Positions 11,291-64,000 of a stretch of DNA of 64,000 nt are shown here, piece by piece. Positions within the stretch are counted from its first letter, which is position 1; each line of letters begins with the position of its first letter. The position numbers and the translations under genes are program-made. Source of the DNA: Psammoneis japonica (taxonomy: Eukaryota). The notes below the pieces were generated by a model that was not told where the DNA came from, made no database searches, and saw nothing but the letters and a program-made list of their open reading frames with translations. The stretch lies in NCBI GenBank assembly GCA_008632985.1, contig QPGO01000078.1, positions 124,001-188,000 on the forward strand, written 5' to 3'.

Positions 11291-11338
11291 AGTGCACAGT
11301 CACCCAGCCAGCGCAACAAGGGGAGGAGGAGCACACAG

Positions 11339-30682: not shown

Positions 30683-30973
30683 TGCCGAATATCACGGTCA
30701 TCTATATTCATTCGTATATTCATTCGTGGGTGTCAACCTGGTGTCAAAAGTGTCAAAAGGATGTCAACGATGACACTTTCTAGAAACCTCTTCTCCTTTC
30801 TCGATACATCTCGATGCCTCTCGAAAGATTGTTTCTTTATATTTCTACGCGGTTTCTTAGTATTAATTCTACGAGATTTCGGAGTAGCCGAATCTCTTTC
30901 ATTTCTTCTCACAACATTAGCAACAGTCAACTTTACAACGCTACTTTATACTGTTACTTGGCGCCACTTGGCA
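30683..30973 (+). repeat. Gypsy 5' LTR (291 bp)
   Basis: Matches 35292-35583 apart from 4 substitutions and a 1-bp indel. Confidence 0.97.
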
Positions 30974-31046
30974 TAGTAAATTTACTCCCAAACACTTATT
31001 CATCTCTCTTGAGATATATCTACCGATCATATTGTCCTGACCAGAC

Positions 31047-35270: not shown

Positions 35271-35291
35271 CGTCTCAATTGGGGAAGCGAG

Positions 35292-35583
35292 TGCCGAATA
35301 TCACGGTCATCTATATTCATTCGTATATTCATTCGTGGGTGTCAACCTGGTGTCAAAAGTGTCAAAAGGATGTCAACGATGACACTTTCTAGAAACCTCT
35401 TCTCCTTTCTCGATACATCTCGATGCCTCTCGAAAGATTGTTTCTTTATATTTCTACGCGGTTTCTTAGTATTAATTCTACGAGATTTCGGAGTAGCCGA
35501 ATCTCTTTCATTTCTTCTCACAATGTTAGCAACAGTCAACTTTACAAACGCTACTTTATACTATTGCTTGGCGCCACTTGGCA
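35292..35583 (+). repeat. Gypsy 3' LTR (292 bp)
   Basis: Direct repeat of 30683-30973, preceded by the PPT. Confidence 0.97.
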
Positions 35584-39065: not shown

Positions 39066-40399
39066 GCTTGGAGACGCCAGTGGCCGTGATCGTAATTCGT
39101 AATACGAGTGTTTGTTTTAGTGAGGACATGTGACTGAAGAACAAGAACAAGCCAGTGATGTAATGCCACCATGACACCTCTGTATAATCGCAAAAGTCCG
39201 AGCCCCTCAGCAAGAAGAAGAAGTAAACAGGGCTTGGATCCAATTAAAAAAAAAAATAGTGTCCATGTTTTGTGAATGTTGCGCAAGCAGTTATTGTACC
39301 GAAGCAGTTTCATCGCCTCAACTGTTTCAGAATAATCCACTCACGACCACATGATGATGCAAATTCAAGGCACCAGAACAACTGTTCCAACTGTCTAAAA
39401 AGTCATCATGAACGGCCGCCGTCCACAAGGGTTTGGTCGCAGATCAATCTCATCTTTGATCTTTGCCGCCTCTCTCCACACTCCTGCGCTTCTTTTCCTT
39501 GCACCACCATCCAACTTGGGGGATTCCCTCAAGTGCTCAACAGCACTTTTTGGGATCGCTCAGATCTTGCCGCGGCTCTGTTGACAAGCGCGTGGATGGT
39601 CAGCATGCCAAGTCCCAAGCAAACGGGTGTCACTGCGTGCTTGGCCATGATGCCAACAAGTGCCTTTTGCCATGATTTCAACCCTCTGGGCCATGTGTGT
39701 GCCTGCAACAACCACTTTTCGACTTTTTGATTTGTCCAGGGGGGGGGGGGGGGGGGGCGGTCACTGTGCTGTGAAGCACCTGCACATGTGCAAGCTTTTG
39801 AGTCCATGCAAGCATGTGCTGCCACACCCTCAGCCAACAAGCAGACACAAGCTGTTGAGAAAATGTCCCCATCACAAGGCATCAAAGAGCTCAAATTCAT
39901 GGGCAAACATGGAGACAATCTGCACAATGCTGGCTGGACTGCAGGAGTGAACAAAACATTGACAGCAACAGCCAAAGCAAAAAGGAAGATGAAGATGAAA
40001 ACAAACATGACAGTGCCAACTGTGTGAGCAAGTCAGAAGATGAAAATCATGAAAAAGAACTGGCTCAAATGACAAACATGAAAAAGCAAACAAGATCCCA
40101 TCCAACTAAAAATCAAGCCCCCCCCCCCCCCAATGAACAGCACAAGTTTGAGAACCAAAAAGTCAAGGAAGAAGATTTTGAGCTTCATGAAAAAAACAAA
40201 GAGACTGAAGAAGATGATGGATCCAAAAAGACAAGAGGTGGGAAGGAGACAGATTGGAGGAACAGACAAGAGCCACATCTGGTGGAGTGGCCAGGAAAAG
40301 TGCATCGTTCAACATCAAATCATGCAAACACATGGAGGGGAAGTTTGATTTGCATGTGGCCTGGGACAGCCCAGACACTGTCAAAACAGAATGAGAGCA

Positions 40400-42250
40400 A
40401 AACAAGCTTGAACACTGCCATCATTTGTGAACAAATGTGAGTCCCAACCAAGAGGATGACATTCCACATGCAGGCAGCCAATGGATTGCTTGTGTCCATG
40501 AGAGGCCACACAACATGGATGGCACGTGCCCTGCAATTGCTGCATCATGCACATGAGTCAGGGAGCTTGCCAACAAGAGTTGGGGAAAGGTGGCATTTCC
40601 AAGAGGATCACCATGTGGCACAAGAAGAGTTGACAGAGTGGGCACAGAGCGGGCAATGTTTTCAACTCAAGATCCACACCTTTGCCACAATTCAATGGAT
40701 GTGCATTTGTTGACAGAGAAGGTTGAAAGGAACAAAAAGCTTGCCAGCAGACAAAGCAAATTCAGGAGCACACGGCACAAGCCATGGATGAAGATGCACA
40801 ACCTGGTGCAAAAAGTGCAGTTAAAAGGACGCCATGGAGTGATGAAGTGTGTGAACACATGTCTGCTGCTGCCAATGTTCTCCCTCCATGATGATCTGAA
40901 CCTTTCATCTGAAATCAAATTGCGCGGTGCAGAGGCACACACAAACTCATGATGAACATGACAAAGGACATGTCACAGGATTGCAGGGCAATGATTTGCA
41001 GTTTGCCCTGGACAAGTGTGCTTTCAACAATTTGCAAAGGCTGTTGACAGTCAGTTGCCCCACCTGTGGCATGAATGCACTTGGGGGTTGTGGCTCCCTT
41101 GTGAACCTCAACACCACCCACTTCTCCAGAGGCAAAGCGCAAGTTGATGTGGGCTGGTGCAGAGCAACAACGGCATTGTTTGCAACACTGAGAAGTTGTC
41201 ATTGTTCTTCCACCATGACATTGATCATGCAAGCACCAAGAGTTGGTGTGCTTGTCACAGAATGGAGTTCTTTGAGTTGACTCTTAAGAAGATCAATGGC
41301 TGGATCAAGGACCAGATTGTTGGTGTTCACACAGCAAAGTTGTGTGAGAGAGGCCTCATTGCACTTGTGTGGAGTGCTTTGCAGAGCCTTTTCAATGCAT
41401 TGCATGCTTGTTCAACAACATGGTTGATTGCAGTGATGCAGGAAAGCACACAAATCTGCACACTTGTGATTTGTGGGATGTCAGCACCAAGGCACAACTG
41501 ATGCACCTGGCAACCACATTGTGGTTGATGCAGCACAAGGCCAGTTTCCTCTGGACATGGAGCATCATGGTGTCACATCCATTTGAGTGACAGGAGTGTG
41601 TTGCAACATCTTGATCATGAGAAATCACAGGGAACCCAGACAGATTGAAGGAAAGATGTTTGACTCTTGATGTGGATCATTTGGCAGCTCTTTACAAACA
41701 AGATTTCATCATCACCAATCTCTCTCACATCTTTCAGTTTATCTCACTCTTTGGAGTGAATCATTTTGTTTGCTTGAAGAAATGCACATTTGGCACCACA
41801 AGGCATCTGCTGTGTTGCAAGTTTGAAGTTTGCATTGACAACTTCCATGCAACCCATGGCCTCTACAATCAACCAAGGCAAGTCAAATGAGCAGCACAAG
41901 AAGCCCAGCAGGACTCCCTGTTTTAGTGACATTGACTTGCTGGTTCAACACCAGCTGGTTTTCCTGATTTTAGAATGGAGTGGAGCCTCAAAAGAGCAGA
42001 ACATTCAACACTTGGCTGTCCCCAAGCAGTGACACTGAGAGAAGTCAGAGAGCAGTCAGTCAGGTGACACTCCTGTGGTGGTTGGCCAAACCATGCAAGT
42101 TGGTGGTGCACAATGTGGTTTGTTGCAGAGCATCAACAGAGTGGCTCCACTCACTCCCTTTGAGCAGTCAGAGCCCACAAAACAATGCACTGGACAATGA
42201 TGGCAATGGCACACAGCATTTCAAGATCTGCCCCTTCTGACTGATCTAAC
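40400..42250 (+). mobile_element. Possible hAT-like transposase relic
   Basis: Faint motifs in the expected order: DHAS...CACH..FELTLKK (CxxH-like, ~41220-41295), DVSTKA (DVxTRW-like, ~41480) and RASTEWLHS (SxxxERxFS-like, ~42130). Confidence 0.3.
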
Positions 42251-43420
42251 CAACTGCATCTTTCAGATTTCACAGCAAAGAAAGATGGAGGCAAGTGCAG
42301 AGTGCTGAGACAGCTCTTTCATTGAGCCACAGAGCCAAAATGTCTGGCTCAAGGCAAGGTGGCCACAATGGTGGAGCACAAGAGTTTGTGTGACAATGAA
42401 AAAAAACAGCAACAGAAGACAGCTTTGCATGACGAACAGCAAAGGACATTTGTCCAAGGCAAAGAAGACAATCTTGCATGTGGACATTGTTTCTTGAACT
42501 CAGGAGGAGGCTTCCACAGAGCAGCAAGGTTGCCCATCTTCTTCTGGGTGCTCCTGATCATGCAGTTGAGTGGTGCACAATGTTGCATGCCAGTAATTGG
42601 AGCAGATTGTGAGAGAGCAGACTGGGCAATGACAGTGTTTTGTTTGCTTCTTCATGGAACAAAAGGCAGAAACAAGAAGCAAGCACTTGGCTCTGGATTG
42701 CAACATTTCATCACCAACAAGGCCTGTGTCAATGGCCATGAAATGGCTCTTGTTGAAGGAGACCACCAGCTGCTGATGGCCACTTCCATTTCTAAAGCCC
42801 ACAATGCCTTGACTGGAATGGCATTGATTGCAAAGCTGTTGTGTGCTGGCTGGAGCCAACAAGGGTGGCAAAGGTGAAAATGGGCCACAAAGGCAATTGA
42901 CCCAACTGACAATGAAAATGTCACAATTCTGGAGGCCACCCCTGATGAGCTGACAAAGGCTCTTCTTCATTGGAAAGCTTTGATTTTTGCAAAATGACAC
43001 AGCCACTTGTCAGCTGACTGTGATCTGCCACAGATCCCTCCCAATGTGACTGAGGTTCTTTGCTGCTTTTGCAGCAGTTTCTGTCAGAGAGAATGTGAGT
43101 CTGGCCCAATTTGTTCACTTTCTTGTCAGAGCCAAGACTTGTGGAAGACATGGCAAAGAAGCAGCTTGCTTGAGTGCAACCAAACAATGTGTTCAGAATG
43201 CCAGCACAAGGTCATGCAACATTGTCTGTTGATGCGACAGTGTCAGAAATGCAAACACTGTGCTTTTGTGATTTGAATGGCCTCTGGGGCATGCACTTGC
43301 ATGTGTGTTGTTCTCTGCATGAAAGTGGGTGTGAAGCCAGTGATGCACTGCACACAACAGCCAGAACAGCTGTGTTGTTGACCTTCTTCAGACAGAAACA
43401 ACATGGGGTCTGACAAGCCC

Positions 43421-43946
43421 GTGGTGTAGATTGGGTGTGCAACCCCATTTTTTGCAGTGTCAGTGTGCACACATGGCCATTTGCACATGCGGAACATGGG
43501 ACTGCACACAACTTTTTTGTGGTTTTTTGCACATTTTGGTCATGTTCACACAAGACACATGCAGGCTTGCTGCTTGCATGCTGAAATTGGCAAATTTCTC
43601 TCACATCTGACAATGTCCCATGCATGTGGGATTGTCCCCCCATTGTGTCACACATGACAGGAGATGGCAGCTCAAGTCCTGGATGTGGTGTGGATTGGGT
43701 GTGCAATCTCATTTTTTGCAGTGTCAGTGTGCACACATGGCCATTTGCACATGCGGAACATGGGACTGCGTGCAACTTTTTTGTGGTTTTTTGCACATTT
43801 TGGTCATGTTCACACAAGACACATGCAGACTTGCTGCTTGCATGCTGAAATTGGCAAATTTCTCTCACATCTGACAATGTCCCATGCACGTGGGGTTGTT
43901 CCCCCATTGTGTCACACATGACAGATGTTGTCTCAAGTCCTGGATG
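43421..43946. repeat. 264-bp tandem duplication
   Basis: gtggtgt(a/g)gattgggtgtgcaa... starts at 43421 and 43685; the copies differ at few sites. Confidence 0.92.
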
Positions 43947-43949
43947 ATG

Positions 43950-46900
43950 TGCGCATGGTTTTCAGTGCCTGTGGCATTGGACAACAAGCTCAGCACATTT
44001 GCAAAGTTTTGACAAAGGTTTTGTGACTCTTGCTCATGTCAGAGAGATGGAATCTGATGCTGATGTGACTGAGATGGTGAAGCGTTTGGCCTCTTGCACA
44101 TCTGCTGAAGGGCACAGAGCATGTGAGTTCAGGCACAGCTCAAATCAAATGCACTCAAGCTTCAGTGTGGTGGATGCATGACAGGCAAAGACATGGACAA
44201 GATTTGGATGCAACAGAAGCAACTCCAGAAGCTTTCAAATTGCAAGTCGCTCAAATGAAGATCATCAAAAAGAAGAGGTCTGATGTGGACACAAATGTGA
44301 GTTCTGGCACAAAGTTTGATCCATCAATTGTGTGACATGTGCAAGAGTGCTTTTTGAGTTTGCCATTGCAGAAGGCTGGGGCAATGAAAGTCCCACTGTG
44401 CCATGTTGCTCATGTGGAAGAAATGCCTGAGGAACCTGCAAATGATGAAGAGCATCACACATGGACCAATTGCTGTTTCAAGGCAATGAAAGTTGTGAGA
44501 ATGGCTGCCATGTTGGATGCCAAAGGAGCTCTTGGCCAGTGCACCAGTTGAACATGAATTTCACATTTGGGTGCATCAGAAAACAGATGTGCAGCATTTG
44601 GGGCACAAGCCAACCATTGCAATGGTCAAGGAGAGTCAAGTGAATGGACAGTTGCAGCCAAATGCATCATCAAAATGGTCCATTGTTGAAATGGGAGGGT
44701 TCCTTTTGAAGCTGTGGCTACAAAGTCAACAAAAGCTTTCACTGCTCTTGACAAGGATCTGGACTTGAAACCTTTCAAACATCAAAAGTTGGATGCATTG
44801 TCAAATTGCATCAATGCAACTGATGCTGAGTTGGTGGCCTCTGAAGCCATGATCAGCCAAACCCATCCAACAGATGTTTAGACAGCATGGAAGTGAGACA
44901 ACAACAGATGTGCAGCCATCATTGCTGGTTGTCACATCAAATTCACCACCCACTTCCAAGGAAACAGTTTGATCAAAACTGCTGCAGAACTTCATTTTGG
45001 AGTTCCTCAACAAAGCAACTTTCCTTTCAAATGGCTGTTTGGAATGTTCCTTGCAAAAGCCATGCAATTGTTGTCAGCTTCCATCTGTTTGGCATGTGCT
45101 TCAATGTGAGATGCAATGTGATCACTCCTTTCCAAGTCTGCAACACAACAAAGAACACTGGCCAGGGACAAAACACACAAGTGTTGTTGTTTCCTTGCAA
45201 GAACAATTTCACTGGCAAGCTGCTTGTCCACAACTCAATCTGCATTGGATGACAACATCTTTCCTTCTGGCAATGAGCAAAAACCATCCTCTGGCTTCCA
45301 ATCTTTCAATTCCTTCTAAACATCTGGATGTTGTGTCTTGAAATTGCACTCAGCCCAATCTTGGGTCAAACAGTTTTTGCAGTTTGCCTCAGAGTGCAAA
45401 CAACAAAAGGAGCAACCTTTTGCTGGTTGTGTGGAAGACTGGAAGCTCCTCCTTGCTCAGTCTCTTGAGATTTCACAAACTGTGTTGAACTGCAAATTGC
45501 GCCCATCTTCTGCTGAATCTCATCCCTTCCTTTTGAGTTGTTTTCTGCACTCTGTTGGGTTTGTGCCCAGCATCTGCAATGAGCTCAACACAACTCTTCA
45601 TGGGACAGCCCCTCATTTTGTTGGTGCTGCCAGCAAGCCCATCTCCACACTGCATGCAGCCAGAAACTTTGCTCAATCCAAGTGAATTTTGCAACCCTCA
45701 ACATCACTTGAGCATTGTTGTGCATTTGTTTGGCCATCTCCCTTTCTTTTTGGTGGTGCTCACCTTTGCTCAATGGAGCCAGAGCTGATGGTGCTCTTGG
45801 TCTTGGCTTTGAGGTGCAAAGGACACAAAGATCTTTGTCATTGCTTGCTCCAGTGACAGCTGTTGACATCTCCATCTGGCATTTGCAATGCGTGTCTCCC
45901 ACCCTCTCCCTTCTTTCTTTTTGTCTCCAAATTCTGAGTTTCCTCACTTGAAGCATCCAAGTCTCCCACCTGCTTCTTCTCTCAATTTCATGTCCCAGGT
46001 GACAATGCATCCTTCTGCAAAACAAATGCTGTTGCAGCCAGGGAGCCACCTTGCTTCAATCAACAATGCAAGCCATGAGGTTCCTGTTGCAATGCTTCCT
46101 CCAAACACTTGAGCAAATGTGCAGGCCAACAAGTTGGCGGGCTGCTTTCACAGTCAACACCCCTTTGACACTGCTCACATCACTCCATTCCCCAACTGTC
46201 AGGCCTGTCTCAATTTGTCTGATGGAGCTGTTGCCACCAGACTGAAAGCTGCAGTTTGCCATGTGTGGCTGCTGCCCCGGCGCTCAAGGAATGCATCTGC
46301 AAAAGGAACAAGTGGCATCCTCAGGTGTGGAGTCTGATTGTCAAACTGTTGCATGATTTGCTCCCTGCAAAACAAGATTGCTCATTTTCACAACCGAGTG
46401 CATCCTCATCATTGTCTTCAGTGTGAGCACCCAATGGAAGACAGGGATCATGTTCTTTGCTGCCCAGAGAATGAGGCTCAGTGTCTGAAATTTTTTTCTT
46501 GCAAAATTTGTGAAAGCATTGCAATCAAATTGACATGATGCCTCTGTCATGGGACTTTCTTCTGACTGCCCTGGAGGCATGGTTTTTGGATTAATGCTGC
46601 GTGAGTCTGATTTGACACTGATGCCAGTTCCGCTGTGGAGGGCCCAGTCAAACATTGGCTGGCAACAGCTCTTCAACAGTTGATTCTCCAAGTTGTGGAG
46701 TGTCTTTCAGGAGATTTGTTTGAGGGAGTTTAGATCACTGGATGAGCATCAAAAGGAGAACATGCTTCCTTCAGTCTGGGCAGCCCAAGTTGGGTCCTGC
46801 ATGTGGAGCAAGTGGTGGGAACTGCAGGAGGAGCACAACCAGATTGCACACAGCTGCAATGCGGATTCTCACAAATCATGTTGGTGTCAACTGAGGCAGA

Positions 46901-47100
46901 GCTGATGGCAATCTGCAACAAATGACAAGAGTGCTTGGCAGCACACAGAAATGTGCTTGGACCACAAGGAGCATGCCACATCTCAAATTCAGAATTGGAT
47001 CGCGATGGTGAAACCCATTTTTAGAAAGAGCTTGAAAGATGCAAAGAACCTGGTGCTTCAAGGGACTTGCACAATTCTCAGCCACTTTGGTGGGGACACT
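43950..47100 (+). mobile_element. Decayed non-LTR retrotransposon 3' region (RNase H-like and C-terminal Zn knuckle)
   Basis: CLQCEHPMEDRDHVLCCP (~46413-46466, CCHC), QSNIGWQQLF (~46645) and WSKWWELQEEHNQIAH (WxxRN-like, ~46803); weaker RNase H-like DADV and HGQD near 44055-44200. Confidence 0.55.
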
Positions 47101-48759: not shown

Positions 48760-51700
48760 CTCAACAAGCACTGGGTGAAAAATTGGCCTGGCCGAGAGCC
48801 TGGAGTGGCCACCCGGCATTGCTGACAATCACAAATGACTTGTGGGAAAAAGAATTCTTGATCCAGTGTGGGCAATGACCACAAGGGAACTGCATGTCAG
48901 CACATTGCATTTGATCCAAACAAAGTGGCTTGTGACCACAGTCTTCAATTTGTCACAGTGAAAATTGTCCAGTTCAGCAACAATGCCAAATTCTGGTTGT
49001 CACATGAGCAAATGGCTGTGTGTGTGGGAAAGAACCCCAACAGCAGACACAAAATGCCGCTGCCACATCAGATTGCACAATCACACACAACAGTCATCTG
49101 GAAGCTTTCTAATGAGAAAATCTTTGAAGTGTCAATTGAAACGATTGTTGTGGTGATTCTGGTCATTTTGCAGATTGCTTTGACAAAAAACAGTCTCTCA
49201 TGGGATTCTACGATTCGCCACCTCCAGACATTCTCTCTTGGCACCCTGCCTGAAACAACCCTCACAAAATGAAAAACAAGAATTGAGGCTCTCTGGGGGC
49301 ACCATTGAGTTGCATCCACCAAAAGCTCACAAAACAGGATCAAGCCAAATCTCAAACAAGACAAAATGAAGATCATTTGCAAGGGTGTTTCTCTCCTTCT
49401 TGCTTTTGCTCCATGCAATTCTTCTGGCAAGTGGCGTTGCTGCATGGTTTGTGCTGGGACAACAGAGCCATTTTGACCAGACAAGAGAGGCTGACAAATT
49501 TGCACTGCACCCCCAAATCTTCTGTTCTTCCTCAGCCCTGACAACTGAGCCAGAAATCAACAATGGGAATTCTCAAAAGGTGAGCAACAAGACTGCACCC
49601 ATGCTGTTCATTTCCTTTTGTCAGTCGTTCTAACAACGTTTGCTTGTTTGGTGAATGCACCTCTGTTCTCACAGGATGTTGTCAACCCCAACACTGAAGC
49701 CAAGTCCAACAGGTTGCTTGCTGCAAGCAAATTGAGGGTTGCATGTTGCTCAAGTTGAGCCAACTTCTTCATCATTTTCTAAAACATCTGAGTTGCTCAA
49801 AATGTCTTTCAGTGTTGCTTTCCTGCCAAGGGGGCATGCTGTGAAACTGAGTGTGGTCAACCCAAATGTGCAGTCACACAGCAACACAATTGTCAAGGTC
49901 ACAGCAGCCACTGCATTGGAGATGGAAGCAGCTGCAGACCCAACCAGTGTGCAACCATCCCACATCCCATGCAACCAACTGTGCCCAGCCCCCCTGCACC
50001 AATGTTGGATGGAAAGGAGGGAGCATGCTGGTTGAGGTTTTGGCAGGTCTTGTCTTGGTGAGCAAGAACCACTTTCTCTCCCCATCTTTGACCTCAATGC
50101 TTTGCCACCTTGAATTGCACAAATTGCATTTTGCGTTTGCAGGGATTGATGCTTTGTTGTTTTGGAAGACATTTGCAGCAGGTTGAAGAATGGAATTTAC
50201 CATGGGGATGACATGGCTAGACTTGTTGCTGTTGTGAGAACAGAATGAATGTGCATCAACAGACATTGTGATGACCCACATTCTTCTTTCTTCTTGCTTT
50301 CAGACCTTCATTTCCAGTGGCTGCAGGACCAGGAGTGCATGTTGCTTGGGTTCTGGTGAATGCCTTCCCTTTGAAAAGAAAAGCACATGCCAAAGGGCAC
50401 TTGGTGACACATTCCAAGGCATCGGCACAACTTGTCAAGACAAAGGAGCGTGCCGTGTGACCCCTCCTTTTGGACCTGGTGCCTCTTCTTCTGGTCCTGG
50501 CACCCCTCCTTCTGGACCTGGTGCTCTGCCATCTGGTCCTGGTGCCTCTTCCTCTGGTTCTGGTCCTCCTCTTGGTCCTGGCACACCTCCGCCTGGACCT
50601 GGCGACCCTCCCACAGGTCCTGGTGCTCTGTTGTCAGGTCCTGTTGCTCTCCTTCTGGTCCTGGTGCTCCTCCTTCACCCACGCTGCCATCTCTGAAAGA
50701 GGGAGGTTGCTGCTTGCCCTTTGGAAACTGGAGCTGCAACGTTCTTTCCAACAAAGACTGCACTCATCAGAGTGGAGCACACCTTGGAGACAGCAAGACA
50801 TGTGCTGCTGCAAGATGCCCAAGGCAAGGAGCCTGTTGTTGTGACAATGGCACTTGTGGCAGGACAAAATTGTCTGGATGCAATGATGGAGTCTTTCAGG
50901 GTCACGGCAGCAAATGTGAAGATGGGAATGGCTCTGCCATTTGTCCAATGCTGGCTCCCACTCCATCTCCTGTGCCTGCTCCAGTCAAAGAGGGGGCTTG
51001 CTGCCTGCCTTTTGGCAATGAAAATTGCAATGTTCTCACCAAACAAGATTGCACTGGTCAGGATGGAGCACACCTTGGGGAGATGGCAAGACATGCACTG
51101 CCAGATGATGCCCAAGGCAAGGAGCCTGTTGTCACGACAATGGCTGTGGCCGGACCCCTTGTTTGGATGCAATGATGGAGTCTTTCAGGGGTTCAGCAGC
51201 AAATGCAAAGGAGAGAATGGTCTGACCATTTGCCCAACGCACTCTCCAACTCCGTCTCCTGCGCATGCTCCCATGGCTGCTCCTGCACCTGCCCCAACAG
51301 GAGCATGCTGCTTGCCCTTTGGGTGGAAAACATGCAAAGTTCTCTCCAGGGCAGACTGCGACACTGAAGGAGGAGTGTGCCAGGGAGACAATCAGGCACG
51401 CCAAAGGACATGTTGCCCAAGGCAAGGTGCTTGCTGCCTTGAAGATGGCAATTGCTTCTTGAGCCCCTTGGCTGGTTGCAACAATGGCAAAGTGTTTCAG
51501 GGCCGCGGCACTGAATGCCAAGACAGCACCGGTGCTCCAGTGTGTCCAGCGGCAGCCACACCTGAGGCATTTCTAACCCCAAGCCCAGTCAAGGAACCAT
51601 TTGGTGTGTGCTGTGACAACAAGTTCTTGAGGTGCACCAAGACCTTCAAGTCTGCATGCAATGGTGGTTTCTTTAGCAATGGAAGTCAATGTGTTAAACC

Positions 51701-52430
51701 CAATGGACAACCCGGGTTTCCTGCTGCCAGAGGTTGACCCCAAGTCCACCGGTTGTTGAAGTGGGCCGCTGCTGCCTTCCCAATGGCAATTGTGATGCAA
51801 CCACTCCTGCAAAATGCAATGATCAGTCCAGTGTGTGTCAGGGAGCCATCACCATGTGTGGTGGTGCCAATGATCACTGCAGCAAGAAAGGAAGTTGCTG
51901 TGTGGGTTTCAAACTGTTCTGCATTGACATCAACATTGCAGCTTGCAAAAAGAAGCAAGGCAACTTCCAGGAAGACACCGCATGCTTTGACACCCATTGG
52001 TGTCCAGGTGAGGCCTGGGCTTGGAGACGCCAAGTGATTGTGATCACAATTTGTGGTGCAAGTGCTTGTTTTGGCAAGGACATGCAAATCTCAATCCAGT
52101 GAATGCCACCATGATGCCTCTGTGTTGTTGCACCAGTCCAAGCCCCTCTGCAAGAAGAAGATGAAGCAAGTGGGGCTTGGGTCCAACTGCAAAAAAAAAA
52201 CAGTGTCCATGTTTTGTGAATGTTGTGCAAGCAGTGGGTGCACCACAGCTGTTTCATTCATTGCCTCAGTTTTTCATTGGCATGACTGCCTGACCTTTTT
52301 TCAGAGACCCCAGAACAATCCACTGTCACAACAACATGATGGAACATGATGACACCAATTCAATCAAGTCACCAGAGCCACCAAGTGTCTTTGAGTCACC
52401 ATGAATGGCCGGCAGCCACAGGGGTTGCAT
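48760..52430 (+). pseudogene. Decayed paralogue of the Cys-rich gene locus (~36245-39430), including upstream region and introns
   Basis: Colinear with the intact locus: ATGAAGATCATTTGCAAGGGTG at 49366, GACCLEDGNCFLSPLAGCNNGKVFQGRGTECQD retained, stop read through at 52016. It carries extra modules at ~50985-51240 and ~51590-51740. Confidence 0.93.
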
Positions 52431-52639
52431 CACAGATCACTCAAGATTGTTGTTTCTGGTGTCAAACTGGTGTCTGACAGTGCCATGGTGATTGATGTTT
52501 TGGTCGGATTCCATGTGTGGAGATTTTGCACTGTGCGCCCAAGTTTCTTGGTGGTGTTGTTTTCAAAAAGGCAACAGCTTGCTGTTTGCTGTGAAATCCT
52601 TGCAGATGTGCACACAGCCTCCACCTCCATGCTGCTTTT

Positions 52640-54110: not shown

Positions 54111-57100
54111 ATGAAGTCTTTGTTGTGCAAAAACTGGAACACGATCAAATTTTTGGAGTCTTTGACTTCTTGAGCTGTCATGTCCCCAAAACTCCTCTTT
54201 TTGCCACCCAGCCAAGGGGTTGATTTTGCAAATGGTGGTCTGCAACCCCCATCAATGAGAGTTTTGAAGCTCTGCTGGTGTCTCTGTGGTTCAATCTTCC
54301 CACAACGCACACTCAGCATGGTGTGAGCCAGCTCCCAAACATGCAGACCCCTGATTGATTCAAGAGGATGCCCCCAAAACTGATCCAAGACAAAAAAACA
54401 AAGTAGAAGGTCACAAAGAAGATGATGATGCAATGATGCTTGTGGCCATGACCACCACTCCTCTCTCCATGTGGGCCAAAAGGTGGTCAAAGAACATCTC
54501 CCATGCCTGGACAATGTTCAAGTGATGGCAAAGAAGCACCTGACTGGAAAAGGAAGAGGAGTGGGGCCAGGCTTCTCATTGATGCCATTTGCCATGAATT
54601 CCATGACAGTGAGCCTGTCAAAAAATTGGAGGTGGCTGTGGGTTTGAGCTCATTTCAGACAATGTGATGCCCTTGCAGGCCACAGTGGCAGTGGTCAGAT
54701 CCTTTTGTTGGAAGACAGCACCAGGAGCTCAAAAAGCTTGAACATGGCAACTGCAAAGAGGCCAGCAACATCTGTTGTGTGCTTCTGCAAAAGCAGCTCA
54801 ATGGAGTTGTCATTTGACCCCACGGCAAGGAGCATCAGTGCACATTTGTCAGCTGCAAAGATGCAGAGATGCAAGACTCAGCAAACCCTCATGTCATGCC
54901 TGCACTTCACAATGACATCTTCCCCTCATCATCTCTCACACTGCACAAATGATGAGTGGAGTGCATGGCACTCACATGGCAAGCTTCTCTCAGCAAAAAT
55001 CCAAGCTCCAAGCATGATCCACTGGACTGCACCAGCAGGACTTAAAAGGCACTCTTGGAGTGTCTTGGAGTGCTGCTGTTCATCATGGAAGCACCGCAAT
55101 GGATCTGAACAGCTGCAAAGAGCACAAAGGTGATTGGAGGAGGTGCAGATTGTCAGTGGGAGGCATTGAGCCATCAGAGCCATCACCGGAGGAATTGGTC
55201 AACTGTGCAAGCTCCACTCCTGTGGCCCTCAAAGCATGAGAGTGCTCTTCTTCCTTCTCCTTGAGGAAGTGCTCTTCTTCCTCCTCCTTGAGGAAGAGGG
55301 CTCTTGCTCTTGCATTGACTCATCAAGGTGCAATCATTGGCATCATCATTTTGCAGCTCCTCCTCTGAAAGAGAGGCAGTGTTGCTGCTGTTGTCATCCT
55401 CCAGCTCCACAAGCTTGTCTGCTGTTTCTTGCTCTGCTTTCAAAATCATCTGCTGCCCCACCAACTCTCCATCCTTTGCAACAGACTTTGTTTCCATGGC
55501 AGCAGAAGTGCCTTTTTCTTCTTCTTCTTTCTCTTCCTCCTCCTCATTGGAGAGCTCCTCCTCCTCCTCCTCCTCCAGCAGCAAGTCTCTGCATGAAAAG
55601 ACTTCACACTCCACAAGACCATTGCACGCCCTGGACAACTGGGCACAAACCTCCTTGCACAGCAACCAGATCTCTGCACCCCCAACAAAGCAGATTCAAG
55701 GTCACACTTCCTCCTTAAAATGCTTTCTGGTGTCAGATTTTGACCAAATGTTGGTGGGCCATGCTGGGTCCTCACCACTTCCACTCAAACCGCAGGGCTG
55801 CAATCATTGCCTTGTTGCACAACAGGTGGCAAAGCAACAGCTTTGCGCACTTGCATGAGCACTGGTTTGCTCTTCATGCTGCTGCTGCTGCAAGTCTCTG
55901 CTGCTCAGCCATGGCTGATGCCACTTGCAAATGAAGAACAGCTGTGGGTGAATGTGAGAGCAAAACACAGATGCTCCAAAAGCACTTTGTCACAGCTGGC
56001 ACCCCAAAGCTCATCCAGCATGCATGCTTGGCTGCCTTTGTTTGGTGAGCACATGCTTCAACAAGGCTGGAATTGCACAGTCATCTTGTTGTTTGTGACC
56101 AGAGAGGGTGACAAGCCAAAGCAGCAGATGCCAAGCCAGCTTTGTGAATGATCTTCATGTGTGGGGAAACAAGGAGGGGTGGCACTGCCATGTGAAAAGA
56201 CACATTGTTGCATGCCGCTGCATTGCTGATCTGTCCCACCAGCAGGTTGAGAAAAAACTCAAAGAGGAGGAGGCACAATCTTTTTGCAAGCTTCTGAAAG
56301 AATTTTTGAAACACCTCAACCTTTTGTCAGCATGATCCAAGGAAGGAGATGTGAGTGGTGGCAGCCAAAATGCAGGTGGAGCAATGATGTGCTCAGCAGC
56401 TTGCTTGTCAGGAAGAAGTTGCTGCTGGGCTGCTGCACCAACAATTTGCAACATCTGGCAAAACATGCTGAAGCAGCCCACAGGTCAAAAGGCTGTTTGT
56501 TGGTGTCTCCAACAGGGAGAAAAATGTTGCAAAAAAGGTGCTGGAGCAGTGCATCAACAAACTGCAGCAAATTTGCCAGCAGCCCTTTGTGTGGCACATG
56601 GAGAGAGGCAATTGCTGTGACCACAGCGGGGCTGCCCAAATCTCTGCACAGCATGGCAAGAGCCACTTTGGAGCCTGAGACACTCTGCCCATGAGCAACT
56701 GCAAGCATTTTCTCCATGTTTCAAGTGTCACAAAAGCAAAAAAAGGAGAAAAAACAGCTGCCCATGCAACTGGTTGTTTGAGCACAATTCACAGAAGCCA
56801 AGAAAGATGGAGGTTGTTGCACTCACAACCTCAAAAAATTTGTGCATTCACAATGGCAGCATCAGCTGCTTTGATGTCATTCAAGATTTGACAAAAAATG
56901 TCATGAGCAAAAAAAAAGTGGGAGAAAAGCGCTTTGAAGCACAATTTGCAACTTCCATGCTGGGCACAACTGCAGCAATGAGACAGTGCCACAGAGCAGC
57001 AAGGTGGTGTTGAGCAAAAAGCTTGCAGGCTTGAGCATGAAATGAGAAAGAAAGGCTTTTGATCAAACACACCATGTCATGTCAAAAAATGAACTCACAA

Positions 57101-57779
57101 ACAAGGAAGAATGCCCCCAACCCAACTGGAGCTGCAGCACTGCAGAGACAGATGAGACACAGGAGCTCACAGCAAAAGCAGCACCAGGGGTGTGTGCAGA
57201 CAAAGCGGCTTGAGAGAGGCAGACAAGCTGATGCCAGCTGGCAAGTCATCATCAGTTTGTGTTGCATTTTTGAAAAGCAACCACATTTCTGCATTTAATT
57301 TCAAAAGTGCAGCTGGCACAGTTTGGGGCTTGAACCTTGAGACAACCTCTGACATGCTGCAAGGCACTGCTGGATGAACCAACCAGCCCACCACCAGGCT
57401 GCAGTGCCACCTCCTGGTGTGTCTTGTCAGCAACTCATTGTGGTTCTGTTCTGCCCACATTGGACGGTTCTCTTTTGTGCACACTTTTTGTGGCTCTTCT
57501 TTCTTCTGCAAGATGCATTGACATGCCATAGACATGTCACTTTGAAAGGGCCAGTCACATCAATTCCATGACACTGGGCACCCCCAATTTTGGAAATGAA
57601 AAATGGCACCAAACATTGAATGCACACCAGCACGCAGTTGTTGAAGCAATGTGCCAATGGCACTCACCACTTGCCACTCAACAAATTCTTCAAGATTGAC
57701 TGTGTGACAGTGTTTCTCTTTGCATTGATGGGACAATGTGTGCCCTTTTTTGCCCAATCTTCCCATGTTCCTGCCCAGC

Positions 57780-58930
57780 CCTGCTTGCCAAATTCACCAG
57801 GTCATGCAAGGAGACTCCTTGACATGGGGTGCCATTCATTTTCTTGAGTTGATGAGAGATGGCAATCCTGGTTTTGATTTCCATCTAAAAAGGGATGATG
57901 AAACTGGCTGGCCCAAGGCTTTGTTGCACATGTTGCTGGAGATGTGTCAAGACCTTCAGCAATGTGGTGATGTTGTTCACCTTCATGCACAGAAGCAGCA
58001 GCACAACAAAGCTGGTTGGCCCATTGTCAAGAATTCAGAGATGAAGACATGCACTGTCTCTGAGTGCATTTGCCTTGAGGAGGACTTCAAGCATTTTGTT
58101 CTTTGGTCTGTGGAGGAAATGATGGACAGAAAATGGTCAACCAAAGACATGTGCATTTTGTTGTCAACCAAATGCTGGCTGAAGGTTTTGTGCAGGGACT
58201 TGGGGATGACAGAAACATGCTGTTGCAGTGTGACTGTTGTCACACTTTCCTCAAAGTTTGGCCAAAGCCAGAAAACTTTGGTGTGTTTGTCCACTGCAAG
58301 AAGATCAAGGACCAGTTGCAGCAGATGCTTCTCTCAGATGCTGTCCAGCAATGGGATGAAGCATCCACTGAGACCAAAGAACACCTGGCGGATGATGCAC
58401 AGAAGCTTTGCCTTTTGTGTTTGAACTGTGACAATGCACAACATTGTGTGCCAGGATGCCACCTGTCAAGCAAGTTCCTGGCAACCTTTGCTTGAAAGGA
58501 TCCGCATCAACAGAACAAAACCATGCCAGCATCGCAGCTCACTTGGGGAAAGGAGCCCCATGGAGCATTGTGAAGTGCCTGAAAATGTTGTTGGAATGCC
58601 AAGCATCCATTGCAAAGAAGTGCTGCAAGGAGCAAAACAACCTGTTCATGAGGTCCTCTCAATGCTGCTCCACATCACAAAAGGGCACAGTTGCACATGA
58701 GACAGCAAAACAGTCTTTGTCATGCTCTGCATGCAAAGGTTTGTTTGCACCAGCATTCCATGCCAAGCACACTCTTCAAAATGTTTAAGATCTCAATGTG
58801 CATCAAGCAAGGCATGCATTGCAGCTGCAACCAATCTGCTGGGTTCTTGCATCAGTGCATGCACAAGGTGTCAGTTGATGGCCAAAAAATCATGATGGAC
58901 AAACACAGCCAGTGCTGGCTTTCAGAAAGA
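57780..58930 (+). mobile_element. Decayed MULE/Mutator transposase with SWIM finger
   Basis: FDFHLKRDDETGWPKALLHM..EMCQDLQQCGDVVHLHAQKQQHNKAGWP resembles the YGDxxxLDxxxxxxNxxxWP MULE core; CSCNQSAGFLHQCMH (~58820-58865) is SWIM-like. Confidence 0.6.
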
Positions 58931-59726
58931 GGGTCCAACTCCCAGGTTCCAGAAAATTTGTTCACAGCCAACAGACAAGTCCAGCCAGAGATGAACGCAG
59001 CAGCAGGTGTTGATGATGATGATGACTTGGATGATGAATGAAGCAACATTGTGCTTCATGATGTGAACCAGGCCATCAAAAGGTGTGATGGCTTGGACAG
59101 CAAAATGGCTGCTGAATCATCTGACATGGTCAACAATGATGCACAAGCTGCTGAATGAGTGGCACATGGTTGCATTGTTCTCAAGGGTCATCAACTGGCA
59201 GAGCATCCACAGAATGACATGGAACAGCTGTCAAACAATGTTGGGCCATGGACAAAAGAGCATGTCAAAGAATGCAACCTTTGAAGCCATGGTGCCAATG
59301 AGTCTGGTGCAGGTCAATCATGATCACCCTCTTTTGGGACAAAGCAAGAGTGGCAACATGGCAGCAAAACAAAGATGGCTCATGTCTTCCCAAGAGCATT
59401 GTCACACAGTGTCTGTGGGAACTTGAAAATGTTCAACAACTGTTGCTTGTCTTTCCTCCAATGATGAAGACATCATTGGTCTGCCCAGGAAACAAGGAAG
59501 TTGAAAGTGCTCCATGTGCAAAAAGATGGGTCATTTTCAAGACAACTGCCCACGTCTCCCCGCTTTCAGGAGACCAGCCACCCCTCAAGGCAAAAGATGC
59601 AAGGCAAAGGTCTGTGTTTTTCACTCAACTGCAAAACATGGGTGTGGTCCCAACCATGAGCAGGGGTGCTGATGATGATCATGTGGTTTCTGAAATGCAC
59701 CTCAACAAGATGAGTGGGGTTGTCAT

Positions 59727-59844
59727 TCACCACTTGCTCCATGTGGCAGACAATCACCATGAAAGTTGCCTCTGGAGTGTTCTTGTCACCACTTGCTCCA
59801 TGTGGCAGACAATCACCATGAAAGTTGCCTCTGGAGTGTTCTTG
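59727..59844. repeat. Perfect 59-bp tandem duplication
   Basis: tcaccacttgctccatgtggcagacaatcaccatgaaagttgcctctggagtgttcttg twice. Confidence 0.92.
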
Positions 59845-61399
59845 GCCAACCACCAAGATGGCAAACACAGACCCTGACTTTGAGAAAAAAAACTGTTTGC
59901 TGTTGGTGCAGCAACCATGTTTGTCAACAAATTGTCCACTGTCATGTGGTCTGTGAGATGGATGCTGGTGTGGTTGCATGTCTGGCAACATCTTCCCAGA
60001 TGTGCACATTGAGTGCAACAGCAAAAAGGAGGAACCAGCAAAAGCAGCAGCAGTGGTGGCAGCAGCAGTCTTTTCTCTGCCAGCTGTGCTGTTGCTGTCT
60101 TTGCAAACTGCTCCATGCAGAACAATGACAATTGCATCCAGTGGCAGGCAGTGACAGCAGAGCCCTCTGACCACCATCATCAAAGAGAAAGATCATTGTT
60201 GAGAAAGCAAAGCATCCTTCACTTGCCACCCAGCCAACTGTGCTTTTTGCACAGGGCCCAGCAAGCACAATGGCACTTTGTTTGTTTCATGGAACACAAA
60301 AGGGTGGCAACAAGAACAACCACTTGGCTCTGGATTGCATTGTTTTGTCACAAATGGCTGTTCCTGTCCAAACCCACCACCAGAGGCATCTTCAACATGT
60401 TTCTGTGCTGAACCAGAGCAATGCTTGCCAACAATTAAAAATTGCACACATTTGCCTCCTGATGTTTCTGCCGATCTTCATCATGCACAGACACTGACTC
60501 TCATCATGGACGGTTGTCAATTCATGTGTCATCCAACCAATTTTTCTCTTTTAAGTTGCATGTTGTGCTTTTGTGTGTGCATCATTAAACTTGTTAAGTT
60601 TGCATGCATTTCATCCCTTTTCCTTCCAATTGCAAGTTGTTTCCCTTCTGTTTTGCTCAGTTTCTGCCAGATCTGTCCTTTTTTCCCACACTGCACACAC
60701 CACAACACGCCTGCTGACCCAAAGTCTGCCAATGACAATGGCACACCCCTGTTGCAATCCACTCTCTCCTGGTTGGATGCTGGTTGGATGTCTGACAACA
60801 ATGACCAGCATGCTCTCCGCTGACATTTTCAAAGGTGTCCCCAGTGCTCTTCCTTTTTTTGTTGTGGCCTCAACAATGCATCTTCCTCTCCCAACCACTC
60901 TCTGAGTGACAATGATGGTGCCTCCATCTCTTTTGATGCATCAGTGCCTCCCAACCATTCTCTTGATTCAAGCACCAAAGGATTTTTGTTCCTGTCTCTT
61001 CATGATGGCAATCCATTGTCCCACCTTTTCTGGATGGCAGTGATCATGAGTTTCAACCATCCACCCACAGTGACCCCTCCTCCAATGAACCACCATTGGA
61101 TTTTTCCTTTGACAACATTGTTGTTGATTCTCATCCTGCGCCACTGCTGGAGGAACTTAGCGCTGGGTCTCTTGCCCCAGTCCCTTCTGATGATGGCATC
61201 TGCTGTGATGAAGTCCTTTTCCTTGAGGAGGAGTTTGACATGCTCTCAGCACAATGCTCTGTGTCATCCTCTTCCCTCCCCAACAATGACAATGACAATG
61301 AAGGATTGCGCCACATTGGCACACTTGATTTGGGGGAGATGGAAGAAGCTGTTGCAACCTCCTTGCATTTGTGACACCAATGCCACCAAGAAGCTTCAT

Positions 61400-63970
61400 C
61401 TGGTGGAGGAAGAGGTGGGTGTGATGATGAAGAAGCACCGCCTCTCCCATGGTTTGTACAAGGCTTTTCTTTCTTGGGCCAAATGTGCCAAGGAGAGTGA
61501 CTGTGAGCACAAGTCTCTCTCATGCTCTGCTGCCTTGCAATGCATGAAAGACAAGAGCATTTTGATTTTGTTGGCCCAGAGCCCATTTGCTCCACAGTGC
61601 AATTGGGCCCCGATTTCCCCCCATGCATGTGTGCCAATGCTCCTTTCTGCATCATGTGAGAAGGGTCTTTTGTGATCCCCAGGTTGTCCAGTCATGTCAG
61701 TGGATGTGCAATGAGAGTTGCTGCCCCAAAACAAATGAGTGCATTTGTGACTCTCTTGACACTGGTGACTGGTGGAAGCAAGCAGAGCATGATCTCAAAT
61801 CTTCCCTTGACAACTCGGCAATGGCTGCCCATCTGGGTCACACTTTGTTTGCCCAGTTGTGCTGTTTGACGATTCCACCTTTTGTGACAACACAGGGCAT
61901 TTGCAAGCACAATCTGTTCTTGTGACATTGGGCATTTTTAATGAGAGTTGTTGCAGCCACTCCCTTTGGTCAACACTTGGAATGCTTCCACGACACCCCA
62001 AGACAAGCAACAAGCACACCACTGACCATCAGCCCAAGCTTGGACAGGAGACACACATCAAGTTCCACCACAGCACTTTGTGCAAGACATTCGCTGAGTT
62101 GCTTCAACTGTCAAAGCAAAAGACCAGTTTTCTGTTTGTGGTGCCATCTCTTGGCATTTGTCATCTTCACTTTTGATTGTGCATGACAATCAGCAATGTG
62201 AAAGAACTCCCATTCCAGCAACATCTCCCAGATGAACAGGGACTGTGACTTGCCACAGCATTTTGGTGACAATCCCTTGTTTGCTTGCAATTTGGTGGAA
62301 CAAGAGAACATCAAGGCACAGTGGAGGCTGCCATGGTGGCCGTGGAGGAAAGGCATCATGGCAAGGTGACTGCAGCTTGCAAATGGTGCAAGGACATTTC
62401 TCAGCACTTGGCTCATCCTGTGTTTTGGGACATCCCTCATGGCAGAGGAAAGCACAGCATTTTTGGCATGCTCCCCTGGGAACTGTTGCATGCCTTGCAC
62501 TTGGGTCTTTGCAAGCACCTGCTTCATGGCTTCTTCAACCTGCGTCAAGTCCCAGAAAAAATGTTGTCATGGTGCCATGAACATCATGTGGCCGGGGACT
62601 GCACAATGGACAAATGACCATCCATCACATTCAAGGAGCTCCCCAAGCTGTTTGAAAAAGCTGAGTTTGAGAGATGCTTCAGGGTTGTCACAGATGCGTC
62701 CAGGAGACAAAGCCATTGGAAGATGCCAAGAACTCCATTTAAGACAGGAGTCACTGACCAGACTTGTCTTTCTGGCCAAGAGCATCCAGGTTTGTTGCTT
62801 GTGACACTTGCTGCAATGAAAGGCATGCTGTCAAAAGAAGACAACAGCCACAAGCCACTGGAGAGTCACTTTGCCCACCTCATGTTCATGTCTTTGGGAT
62901 TGGGTGCAACACTGTCCATGTCCTCCAACAAGGAAAGCTTTCTCACTTGGCTTCAGAAATGCCTTTTCAAGTGTCTCCAATTGTTTGAATTTGCAGTCAG
63001 CCTGTTCAGAGAGTGCCGCCCTTGCTCTGGACTTCACACATCCAAGTTCCACGGCCTTCTTCACTTTCTTTTTTATGTTTGTCAGTGCAGCAATGCCAGC
63101 AATTTTTTTGGTGGATTCTGTGAAGCTCTTCTCAAGATGCTGCTTTTGAAGCAACCTGCTAAAACCACAAGTCGTTGGCATGACAGGCTTGACCCAGATG
63201 TGACAAATTGCCACCATGAGGACCTTGTGGTCAGGGAATCAGAGAAGCATTTGCTGGAGGTGGGTTGGACCTGCAGCTGGATTCAAACTGCACAAATCTG
63301 TGTTGACAGCCACTTGTGCTGCAAAGGCAGGTCACACCAATGCCGCATGGTTTGTAAAATGTGGCAACAAACAGCTTGAGACACCGTCACATCCTTTTGT
63401 TCCTGGCCATTGTGGGAACAAGTGGGTGACCTCCTTGCCAGATCATGCTGATCAACATGAAGCTTTCCCTGTTGACATTGTCAATTTTCATTTTGGATGC
63501 AGTGCTCTGGGCCCAGCCAATGACAAATGACATTCTAGGATGCCACCCCAACTTTCACTCCTGTCCATGGGAATGCAGGAGTTGGCATGACTGGGCCATG
63601 ATGAACTGGGACAAGAATGAAACAAGCTGTTCTGCAGCAGCTTGTGTGTCGTTGTGGGCAACCTTTGAAAATGAAACAACAGAGTGCAGCAAATCCATGG
63701 TTTGTGCAATCCAATCACTTTGGAGCTTCACACCATCCAAAGATTTGCTGCTGACCTTTTTCATCATGGATGCAATGGAGTCAGAAATCAAAGTCAATGA
63801 TGCTTCTGACACATTGTCCGCTGTCTTTGGTCTTCCATTGATGAGGTCAGAACAAGACCCCTTTCCCAACAATTTAGAGGATGCTGCTCATTTTGTTGTT
63901 GTCCCACCAAGGATTGACTGGTGCAACATGACTTTGTCATCAATGGAGGAACATTTGGCCCCTCAAAATT
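61400..63970 (+). mobile_element. Decayed Plavaka-like transposase
   Basis: LDTGDWWKQAE, LFDDSTFCD..GHL...VTLGIFN...WSTLGMLP, GMLPWELLHALHLGL, KFHGLLHF..NFFGGFCE..KQPAKTT and HPNF...WHDWAMMNW in the expected order, with frameshifts. Confidence 0.6.
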
Positions 63971-64000
63971 AGGAGGATTGCTGGTGAAGCATTGACAATT

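Follow-up and report, generated by a model that had tools for sequence, protein, structure and literature searches.

Why should a long block of a diatom contig hold almost no CpG and almost no TpA dinucleotide steps, with no change in its base composition? The question is raised by contig QPGO01000078.1 of the Psammoneis japonica assembly GCA_008632985.1, of which we analysed positions 124,001 to 188,000 of the forward strand (these 64,000 nucleotides are the window below, and coordinates are those within it). A sequence-only reading of this DNA had described about 24.5 kb nearly free of both steps, and had attributed them to a repeat-targeted process in which decay of methylated CpG is accompanied by a second, TpA-specific A:T to G:C mutator. 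We find that CpG and TpA were both converted to CpA or TpG in this main tract and in two smaller ones (Table 1). The sequence-only reading is thus partly supported: its central inference, a second process specific for TpA, is upheld, and its statements on repeat targeting, on an error-prone polymerase as a candidate agent and on the absence of any earlier description are not.

Three tracts have lost CpG and TpA and gained CpA and TpG

In the main tract 140 CG steps remain where about 1446 are expected from the step density of the window's normal part, and 59 TA steps where about 885 are expected; CA and TG together number 5665 against about 3508 expected, a gain of about 2157 compared with 2132 CG and TA steps lost. 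The observed/expected (O/E) profile agrees with these counts, and the nearly CG- and TA-free block is confirmed from 39397 to the window end. Windows of 2 kb show both steps depleted and CA/TG raised from 40001 to 64000 (O/E 0.04–0.18 for CG, 0.01–0.06 for TA and 1.64–2.10 for CA/TG), compared with about 0.9–1.4 for CG and about 0.35–0.85 for TA in the rest of the window. The G+C content of the same 2-kb windows is steady at 0.45–0.52, and that of the main tract as a whole is 0.476, compared with 0.480 in normal DNA. When every CG and TA of normal DNA was converted at random to TG or CA in silico, the CA/TG O/E values became 1.90/1.93; those of the main tract are 1.82/1.88.

The left limit of the main tract is sharp, with the final TA before it at 39396 and CG sparse past 39758. 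Two small tracts with the same signature, at 2790–3510 and 10900–12850, were absent from the earlier reading, and the limits of all three are sharp to about 100 bp, beside normally evolving DNA. Since normal intergenic DNA in the window is without depletion (CG O/E 0.91, TA O/E 0.59), the tracts are local and are not the product of a genome-wide mutation bias, which we rejected. GC-biased gene conversion was rejected as well, the net GC change being nil, and selection against CpG/UpA was considered and rejected.

A simple index, (CG+TA)/(CG+TA+CA+TG) in 500-bp windows, lies between 0.00 and 0.09 in the main tract. In a control of 3415 such windows (887 kb from 80 unrelated metagenome loci) none had an index below 0.228; these loci came from a metagenome scan with a Dis3L alignment, nearly all of them are distant RNase II/R genes and a single one (L009, 44% identity) may belong to a stramenopile, so that they serve as a control for chance and are no test of diatoms.

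TpG and CpA are the derived states

The main tract contains a decayed copy of a locus for a Cys-rich protein, and the intact, unconverted paralogue lies outside the tract and provides a reference state. The two share 79% identity over 3131 aligned columns. Among the 163 CG steps of the intact copy, 18 are kept in the decayed copy, 61 are CA and 57 are TG; the 84 TA steps gave 4 kept, 31 CA and 33 TG. The earlier comparison of these paralogues, in which CG and TA had both been seen to become TG or CA, therefore holds at 118 of the CG and 64 of the TA sites. Among 620 differences in columns with ungapped flanks, 189 have CG or TA in the intact and CA or TG in the decayed copy, and 8 have the reverse. 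The coding consequences follow the same pattern: the seven Tyr codons of the intact copy have become three His, three Cys and one Asp, of 16 Arg CGN codons the decayed copy keeps 4 (the replacements are Cys, His, Gln and Trp), and it reads TGG where the intact copy has its stop TAG at 39063, as the sequence-only reading had noticed. Five of five outgroup proteins share with the intact copy the Tyr of a G-x-Y-Q-G motif, at which the decayed copy has Cys. Since the Tyr is common to the outgroups and the intact copy, TG/CA is the derived state; this, together with the ratio of 189 to 8 and the TAG to TGG change, agrees with the polarity proposed earlier.

The tract at 10900–12850 holds two fragment copies of the C-terminus of a neighbouring gene. 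The part of fragment a that lies outside the tract has 2 differences from the intact gene in 142 aligned bases; the part within has 35 in 162, made up of 9 CG/TA to CA/TG changes, with none in reverse, and 26 at other sites. This contrast could mean that the outside part was homogenised, or that mutation in the tract is generally faster. Fragment b has 52 differences in 272 aligned bases, 17 of them CG/TA to CA/TG and 2 in the reverse direction.

Sequence context, strand and continued action

From the intact to the decayed Cys-rich copy, A after T underwent transition at 42% of sites (35/83), compared with 8.8% after A, 10.8% after C and 7.1% after G, and transversions at TA (9/83) are no higher than in other contexts. 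Transitions affected 35% of C before G and 4–12% of C elsewhere; C in [C]A, at 10%, is at background. Substitutions counted by polarised context thus show A to G change enriched at TpA over A after A, C or G, and the proposal of a second, TpA-specific A:T to G:C process within the CpG-loss tracts stands. The loss of TA spans every flank context, and the four NCG contexts each retain 3–5 of 31–46 sites.

Each TA or CG has one target base on each strand, and the product shows which of the two changed; the two flanks of a step can therefore be set against each other. At 34 discordant sites the adenine of TAY (Y, pyrimidine) beats that of TAR (R, purine) 26 times (p=0.003), and an A before G wins 9 contests with its partner A and loses 20. 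At CG, the cytosine of WCG (W, A or T) beats that of SCG (S, C or G) at 42 of 60 sites (p=0.003), with 39 wins and 24 losses for TCG. Relative to a random-strand expectation, for which the ancestral composition of the tract is not known, GCA/TGC stands tract-wide at 1.25x and TCA/TGA at 0.74x, in agreement with both flank preferences. The balance of TG and CA is even in 24 of the 25 1-kb bins of the main tract, which has no trace of a transcription- or replication-linked asymmetry.

Double transitions between CA and TG occur at 36 of 467 sites; for the twelve remaining dinucleotides the figure is 44 of 2380 (p=1e-9). Such an excess fits a recycling in which ordinary transitions make a CG or TA that is then promptly re-converted to either product; newly arisen CG and TA are re-converted, and the action on the tract is a sustained one.

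The TpA and CpG changes are separable. In two edge zones taken together (39397–39760 and the left 210 bp of tract 2790–3510) no TA is left of 21 expected, and 23 CG are kept of 33 expected (about 70%). The 300-bp window at 39401 was likewise flagged as having lost TA only, and none of the 300-bp windows has lost CG with TA kept. Since the edge zones lack TA and largely keep CG, the TpA change reaches farther or proceeds faster than the CpG change and is no simple by-product of it.

Presence of the tract in reads

A base-calling or polishing artefact, in which case the changes would be absent from reads, had been named as a possible undoing of these observations. Logan contigs of one run, X1 (built from exact 31-mers, k-mer depth about 55–65, 734–3558 nt long), match the main tract, with 38 differing letters in the 9,781 bases compared. 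Because contigs of exact 31-mers at a depth of about 60 reproduce the tract, miscalling of modified bases in long reads is unlikely. The run is one sample of unrecorded library type, possibly the assembly's own; it thus checks the assembler and the read chemistry, and is no independent isolate. Contigs of run X2 cover the Cys-rich gene region only, and run X3 gave none.

Between X1 and the window there are 153 transitions among 205 differing places. Among the 40 differences listed of 216, 24 lie in the main tract; 19 of these are transitions, and 14 of the 19 exchange CA/TG with CG/TA (49.5% expected by chance, p=0.03), which is at most a weak hint of recent activity. The split in allele polarity, 11 to 3 in the same 40 listed of 216 differences, carries no weight either way. 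In three of 30 bins the depth exceeds that of the others several-fold, and the main tract may thus include some dispersed repeats.

Content of the tracts and their targeting

No Pfam domain was found at E<=0.01 in any of 99 stop-to-stop open reading frames (ORFs) of at least 100 aa in the main tract or in any of six ORFs of the small tracts, and there was accordingly no viral or transposon domain among these 99 + 6 ORFs; tRNA and Rfam searches gave no matches in the tracts. Within the window the main tract has no repeats beyond the Cys-rich paralogue and two small tandem duplications. One of the latter is given in Table 1; the other, at 59727–59844, is a perfect (100%) duplication of a 59-bp unit, a very recent event within old decayed DNA. 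When the 12 long ORFs were searched by tblastn against the window itself, the paralogues reported here alone came up, and in particular no decayed copy of the Gypsy pol in the tract. The young Gypsy long terminal repeat (LTR) retrotransposon that lies 4 kb from the main tract is unconverted, with a CG O/E of 1.24–1.44 (unusually rich) and a TA O/E of 0.52–0.73. It is apparently still active, and a metagenome scan with its pol found no relative.

The tracts had been called repeat-targeted. Given an unmutated Gypsy element with 99% identical LTRs, so few in-window repeats for most of the main tract and no Pfam match among its 99 ORFs, targeting of repeats is not established. Two of the three tracts contain decayed copies of neighbouring host genes, and the common denominator of the tracts in this window is dead DNA, host-gene duplicates included. 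The tract at 10900–12850 has tblastn matches to ORFs 15794–17098 and 8395–10410, and looks like a dead member of the array to which these belong. That array (8395–22273, - strand) consists of five long ORFs without Pfam domains that have pieces in common: the N-terminal part of 8395–10410 is shared with 19172–22273, and 17361–19175 also shares sequence with 19172–22273.

Stop codons are skewed in the same DNA. From 39500 to 64000 there are 104 TAA and TAG (both strands), compared with 1237 TGA, and the near-absence of TAA and TAG leaves numerous long but false ORFs with a high content of Cys, His and Trp, for which gene callers will probably predict spurious proteins. The longest read-through frame, 60203–61672, is non-protein in appearance.

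Table 1. Tracts, paralogous copies and repeats in the window (strand "." where none applies)
Feature	Position	Strand	Description
Main converted tract	39397..64000	.	at least 24.6 kb (24,604 bp), runs past window end; nearly all CG and TA converted to CA/TG
Edge zone of main tract	39397..39760	.	TA 0 (13 expected), CG 15 (21 expected)
Small converted tract	2790..3510	.	between two genes; TA 1 (26 expected), CG 14 (42 expected)
Left 210 bp of small tract 2790–3510	2790..2999		TA 0 (8 expected), CG 8 (12 expected)
Small converted tract	10900..12850	.	within tandem paralogous gene array; decayed neighbour-gene fragments; TA 6 (70 expected), CG 21 (115 expected)
Intact, unconverted Cys-rich locus (reference state)	36246..39313	+	ORF 37878–39065, 395 aa, Cys-rich repeat protein
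Decayed, converted copy of Cys-rich locus	48768..52257	+	78–79% identity to 36246–39313; frameshifts, TGA stops
Intact gene	15794..17098	-	C-terminal part is the source type of fragments a and b
Fragment copy a, C-terminus of ORF 15794–17098	10767..11078	-	spans tract limit at about 10900
Fragment copy b, C-terminus of ORF 15794–17098	11833..12087	-	entirely within tract
Tandem duplication in main tract	43421..43924	.	264-bp unit, 1.9 copies, 95% matches
Young intact Gypsy LTR retrotransposon, unconverted	30683..35547	+	256-nt LTRs 99% identical; 1407-aa pol with RT, RNase H and integrase

Comparison with known systems

The sequence-only reading knew of no description of such a process as a genome defence, and here a 2026 preprint by Mettrop et al. 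(bioRxiv 10.64898/2026.01.13.699255) corrects it. In 15 mutation-accumulation lines of Bigelowiella natans, that preprint places 231 of 302 new single-nucleotide mutations within two inserts of viral origin, one from an integrated giant virus and one from a virophage. Of these 231 mutations, 230 were A to G or T to C, all on TpA, and the insert rates were about 6e-7, 1000-fold above the rest of the genome. The same genome has 124 clusters of TpA-poor windows rich in CpA and TpG, and the authors propose an ADAT2-like adenine deaminase with a role in defence. The likeness to the tracts described here lies in change that consists solely of A:T to G:C transitions, solely at TpA, in discrete regions beside normally mutating DNA; by the preprint's criteria 27 of the window's 64 1-kb windows qualify, 25 of them consecutive. 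There are also differences. B. natans is a chlorarachniophyte (a rhizarian), whereas the present case is a diatom (a stramenopile). The nucleocytoplasmic large DNA virus region of B. natans has a Rho TpA of 0.45, while the diatom tract is near saturation, at 0.00–0.08 over at least 24.6 kb; and the rate in B. natans was measured in real time, whereas the diatom case is known from its footprint in the sequence. In the literature searched we found no report of joint CpG/TpA erasure, or of TpA hypermutation, in diatoms; neither Maumus 2009 nor the SPLASH preprint had anything that bears on it.

CpG loss is the expected product of the deamination of methylated cytosine. The tracts resemble methyl-CpG decay in the equal shares of CG to TG and CG to CA (57 and 61) and in their confinement; however, such decay alone never removes TpA, and the 5'-flank order at CG (T and A above C and G) is unlike that of spontaneous 5-methylcytosine decay in mammals. 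Repeat-induced point mutation (RIP) of ascomycetes turns CpA into TpA and leaves AT-rich DNA. Like RIP, the process spoils DNA that is duplicated or unwanted by context-specific transitions, and does so within sharp limits, but RIP makes TpA, whereas the diatom tracts lose it (59 compared with 885 expected), with flat GC and with [C]A at background. RIP moreover mutates all copies, whereas the intact loci 36246–39313 and 15794–17098 keep their CG and TA and the Gypsy LTRs are untouched, although selection on intact genes could mask hits there.

Deamination of A to inosine reads as A to G, and a 5' U or T beside the edited A is natural both for editing of tRNA A34 and for ADAR. In the ADAR footprint the edited A prefers a 5' U and a 3' G, and edits gather on a single strand; the tracts share the need for a 5' T but lack the 3' G (TAY 26 to 8; A before G 9 wins and 20 losses) and the strand runs. 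Very-short-patch (Vsr) repair in E. coli depletes CTAG, with TA going to CA or TG as a side effect of repair linked to cytosine methylation; that depletion is mild and concerns a single recognition site, whereas the diatom tracts lose every TA context.

Other precedents bear on the enzymes. Hypermutation at TpCpG in Pucciniomycotina (Horns et al. 2012, PMC3318451) is directed at CpG with a preferred 5' T, like the change in the diatom tracts. In diatoms, CpG methylation of transposable elements depends on DNMT5a (Hoguin et al. 2023, PMC9998398), and many diatoms are credited with DNMT4, a relative of the RIP enzyme RID. On DNA, the amphioxus enzyme BjADAT2 deaminates C in the context TCG and A in the context GAA (PMC10354150), and the TAY preference of the diatom tracts is unlike this GAA.

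Proposed explanation and alternatives

We consider it probable, though well short of certain, that these are silent tracts of diatom nuclear DNA on which two co-localised, context-specific transition processes have run near to completion and are still running. The tracts would be discrete pieces of nuclear DNA, non-functional and probably silenced. One process would change CpG to TpG or CpA by deamination of cytosine that is presumably methylated; the other would change TpA to TpG or CpA (A:T to G:C), needing the TpA step and preferring 5'-TAY-3'. The simplest agent for the second would be a DNA-acting adenine deaminase (A to inosine, read as G) that works in the same chromatin and on both strands alike, and the process would be of the same kind as the hypermutation measured in the B. 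natans lines. A shared CA/TG product would keep GC constant while both self-complementary pyrimidine-purine steps vanish.

Several points weigh against this explanation. The direction of change is based on one 3.1-kb pair, two short fragments and coding logic, and most of the main tract has neither an ancestor for comparison nor recognisable content (no Pfam match in 99 ORFs). The decayed copies are about 14–16% diverged at other sites too. By our own arithmetic the enhancement over background transitions that is strictly required in the pair is about 12–16-fold per base (from 11% of CG kept, 4.8% of TA kept and about 9% background transitions), a figure that is a lower bound, given the saturation of the sites and a background that arose partly in the intact copy. 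A change directed at A (in TAY) and one directed at T on the opposite strand (in RTA) are indistinguishable from sequence. Changes are not clustered by strand, with 60 runs compared with 59.9 expected for CG and 34 compared with 32.9 for TA (a pooled CG and TA test gave only p=0.02), and a processive single-strand deaminase is therefore not indicated. Finally, the B. natans targets are viral and the term CpG has 0 occurrences in the text of that preprint, whereas the diatom tracts are not recognisably viral and have had their CpG erased.

The two changes could be the work of a single dual-specificity deaminase of ADAT2/TadA-like type that acts on silenced tracts at C in (T)CG and at A in TA(Y), CpG loss then being enzymatic; we think this unlikely, though worth some weight. 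It would account for two changes that give one product in the same tracts and for the favouring of 5' T or A over C or G at CG (42 to 18; TCG 39 wins, 24 losses). Amphioxus ADAT2 acts on DNA at both C (5'-TCG-3' preferred) and A, and Pucciniomycotina hypermutate TpCpG in repeats. However, edge zones without TA keep about 70% of their CG, so that one enzyme would need a differing reach or rate on its two substrates; the four NCG contexts are all nearly exhausted (3–5 kept of 31–46 each); the preferred A context of BjADAT2 is GAA and not TA; and in the B. natans hypermutable regions 230 of 231 mutations are A:T to G:C with no C to T component. Confinement to the tracts would also follow from misdirected T:G repair, which we judge quite improbable. 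Here an MBD4/TDG- or Vsr-like enzyme would act on methylated tracts, and a G misinserted opposite the T of TpA would be fixed as G:C, so that TpA would drift to TpG or CpA solely where CpG is methylated. Transitions only, a 5'-T need on the G-gaining strand and no strand clustering are all predicted and all seen; confinement to methylated tracts is predicted too, and of this the tract confinement is seen and the methylation is presumed. But TA is gone in all flank contexts and not at one recognition site, efficient T:G to C:G repair should guard CpG, of which about 90% is gone, and a rate limited by polymerase error fits poorly with the 1000-fold excess measured in B. natans.

The sequence-only reading had named error-prone patch synthesis by Pol-eta after mismatch repair of deaminated 5-methylcytosine, in the style of antibody hypermutation. 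Such synthesis would link TpA loss to methylated tracts, and it permits a halo of TA loss some hundred bases past the CG-loss zone, as at two edges. The Pol-eta signature, however, is WA (TA and AA alike) with a large share of transversions, whereas transitions at A[A] (8.8%) are like those at C[A] (10.8%) and G[A] (7.1%) and transversions at TA (9/83) are at background; TA is gone in edge zones where CG is mostly kept, and overall the loss of TA is more complete than that of CG, although the process would need CG to act. In the B. natans lines, too, TpA mutates and CpG does not. With AA spared and transversions at their background level, Pol-eta is disfavoured, and we give it very little credence. 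It is similarly hard to believe that the tracts do not reflect mutation in situ at all, but come from miscalled modified bases or over-polishing, or are foreign or RNA-derived DNA in which CpG and UpA avoidance was selected elsewhere. X1 is one sample of unrecorded library type, possibly the assembly's own, and CpG and UpA are both counter-selected in RNA viruses and cytoplasmic RNAs (PMC3829696). Against this, exact-31-mer contigs at a depth of about 60 match the tract, and noisy long reads would not yield such contigs; host genes from the neighbourhood have converted copies within the tracts, while their intact copies are unconverted; and O/E values of 0.03–0.1 lie well under any selective avoidance that the 887-kb control contains, with its minimum index of 0.228.

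Neighbouring genes and other features

The left 39 kb of the window is gene-dense, with long uninterrupted ORFs that include a DIS3-like exonuclease, a focadhesin-like protein, the Gypsy pol and a Hint-plus-subtilase protein. The last (2–2260, - strand) runs past the window start and comprises the end of a subtilase (Peptidase_S8) domain and a Hint (hedgehog/intein-type) module. The best named relatives of the DIS3-like protein are from Cylindrotheca closterium (51%) and Seminavis robusta (48%), followed by Mayamaea, Nitzschia, Chaetoceros and Epithemia; oomycete proteins stand at 37%, and no relative is above 54%. These diatom relatives indicate that the window is diatom nuclear DNA, without a close relative in the protein collection.

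The Cys-rich protein (37878–39065, + strand) is made of repeats of the form GACC..G.C....C...G.YQG..T.C....CP. Its best relatives are bacterial, several of them annotated as Phycisphaerales "choice-of-anchor" domain proteins (E down to 3e-34, 32–36% identity), and no diatom name occurs among its 42 hits; the family may have been acquired, or may have a very patchy distribution. One contig of run X2 links the ends of the intact (39130) and decayed (52087) copies with 5 letters between them, and X2 contigs have loose ends at 50453 and 51299 that run on into CG-rich sequence; the join and these loose ends suggest more unconverted paralogues elsewhere in the genome. At the left end of the intact paralogue, 36006–36424 is a 418-bp stretch with 1 TA and 22 CG. 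We considered it as a patch edited at TA only and dropped it, there being similar TA-free gaps in ordinary coding DNA (263 bp at 5908–6171 in the Dis3L gene).

Significance

TpA-specific DNA hypermutation has been reported once before, in the 2026 chlorarachniophyte preprint, for two viral inserts with partial depletion. What is new here is the diatom lineage, the near-saturation over at least 24.6 kb, the co-erasure of CpG, the hitting of host-gene duplicates with a Gypsy element spared, and the TAY flank preference. For practical purposes, an index (CG+TA)/(CG+TA+CA+TG) below 0.1 is an easy marker of such tracts genome-wide; the TAY and WCG preferences constrain any candidate enzyme; and annotators should be wary of the long false ORFs that tracts without TAA and TAG stops give. 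A natural TA-specific DNA adenine editor that treats both strands of the double helix symmetrically would matter to genome-defence research and to base-editing technology.

If the explanation proposed here is true, the saturated diatom footprint would show that the process is old, is widespread in marine algae and reaches completion, and that it works alongside CpG decay on DNA without recognisable viral content. A broader possibility, to which we assign a low probability, is that diatoms, and perhaps the stramenopiles, alveolates and rhizarians (SAR) at large, have a chromatin-targeted DNA-editing defence that deliberately erases CpG and TpA from silenced DNA, possibly through one dual A/C deaminase of the ADAT2/TadA fold (T-C-G and T-A-Y). 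It would be a GC-neutral counterpart of fungal RIP, in which codons are permanently scrambled, Tyr and Arg are lost and TAA and TAG stops are removed; such a defence would hit any silent DNA, host-gene duplicates included, and not just viruses.

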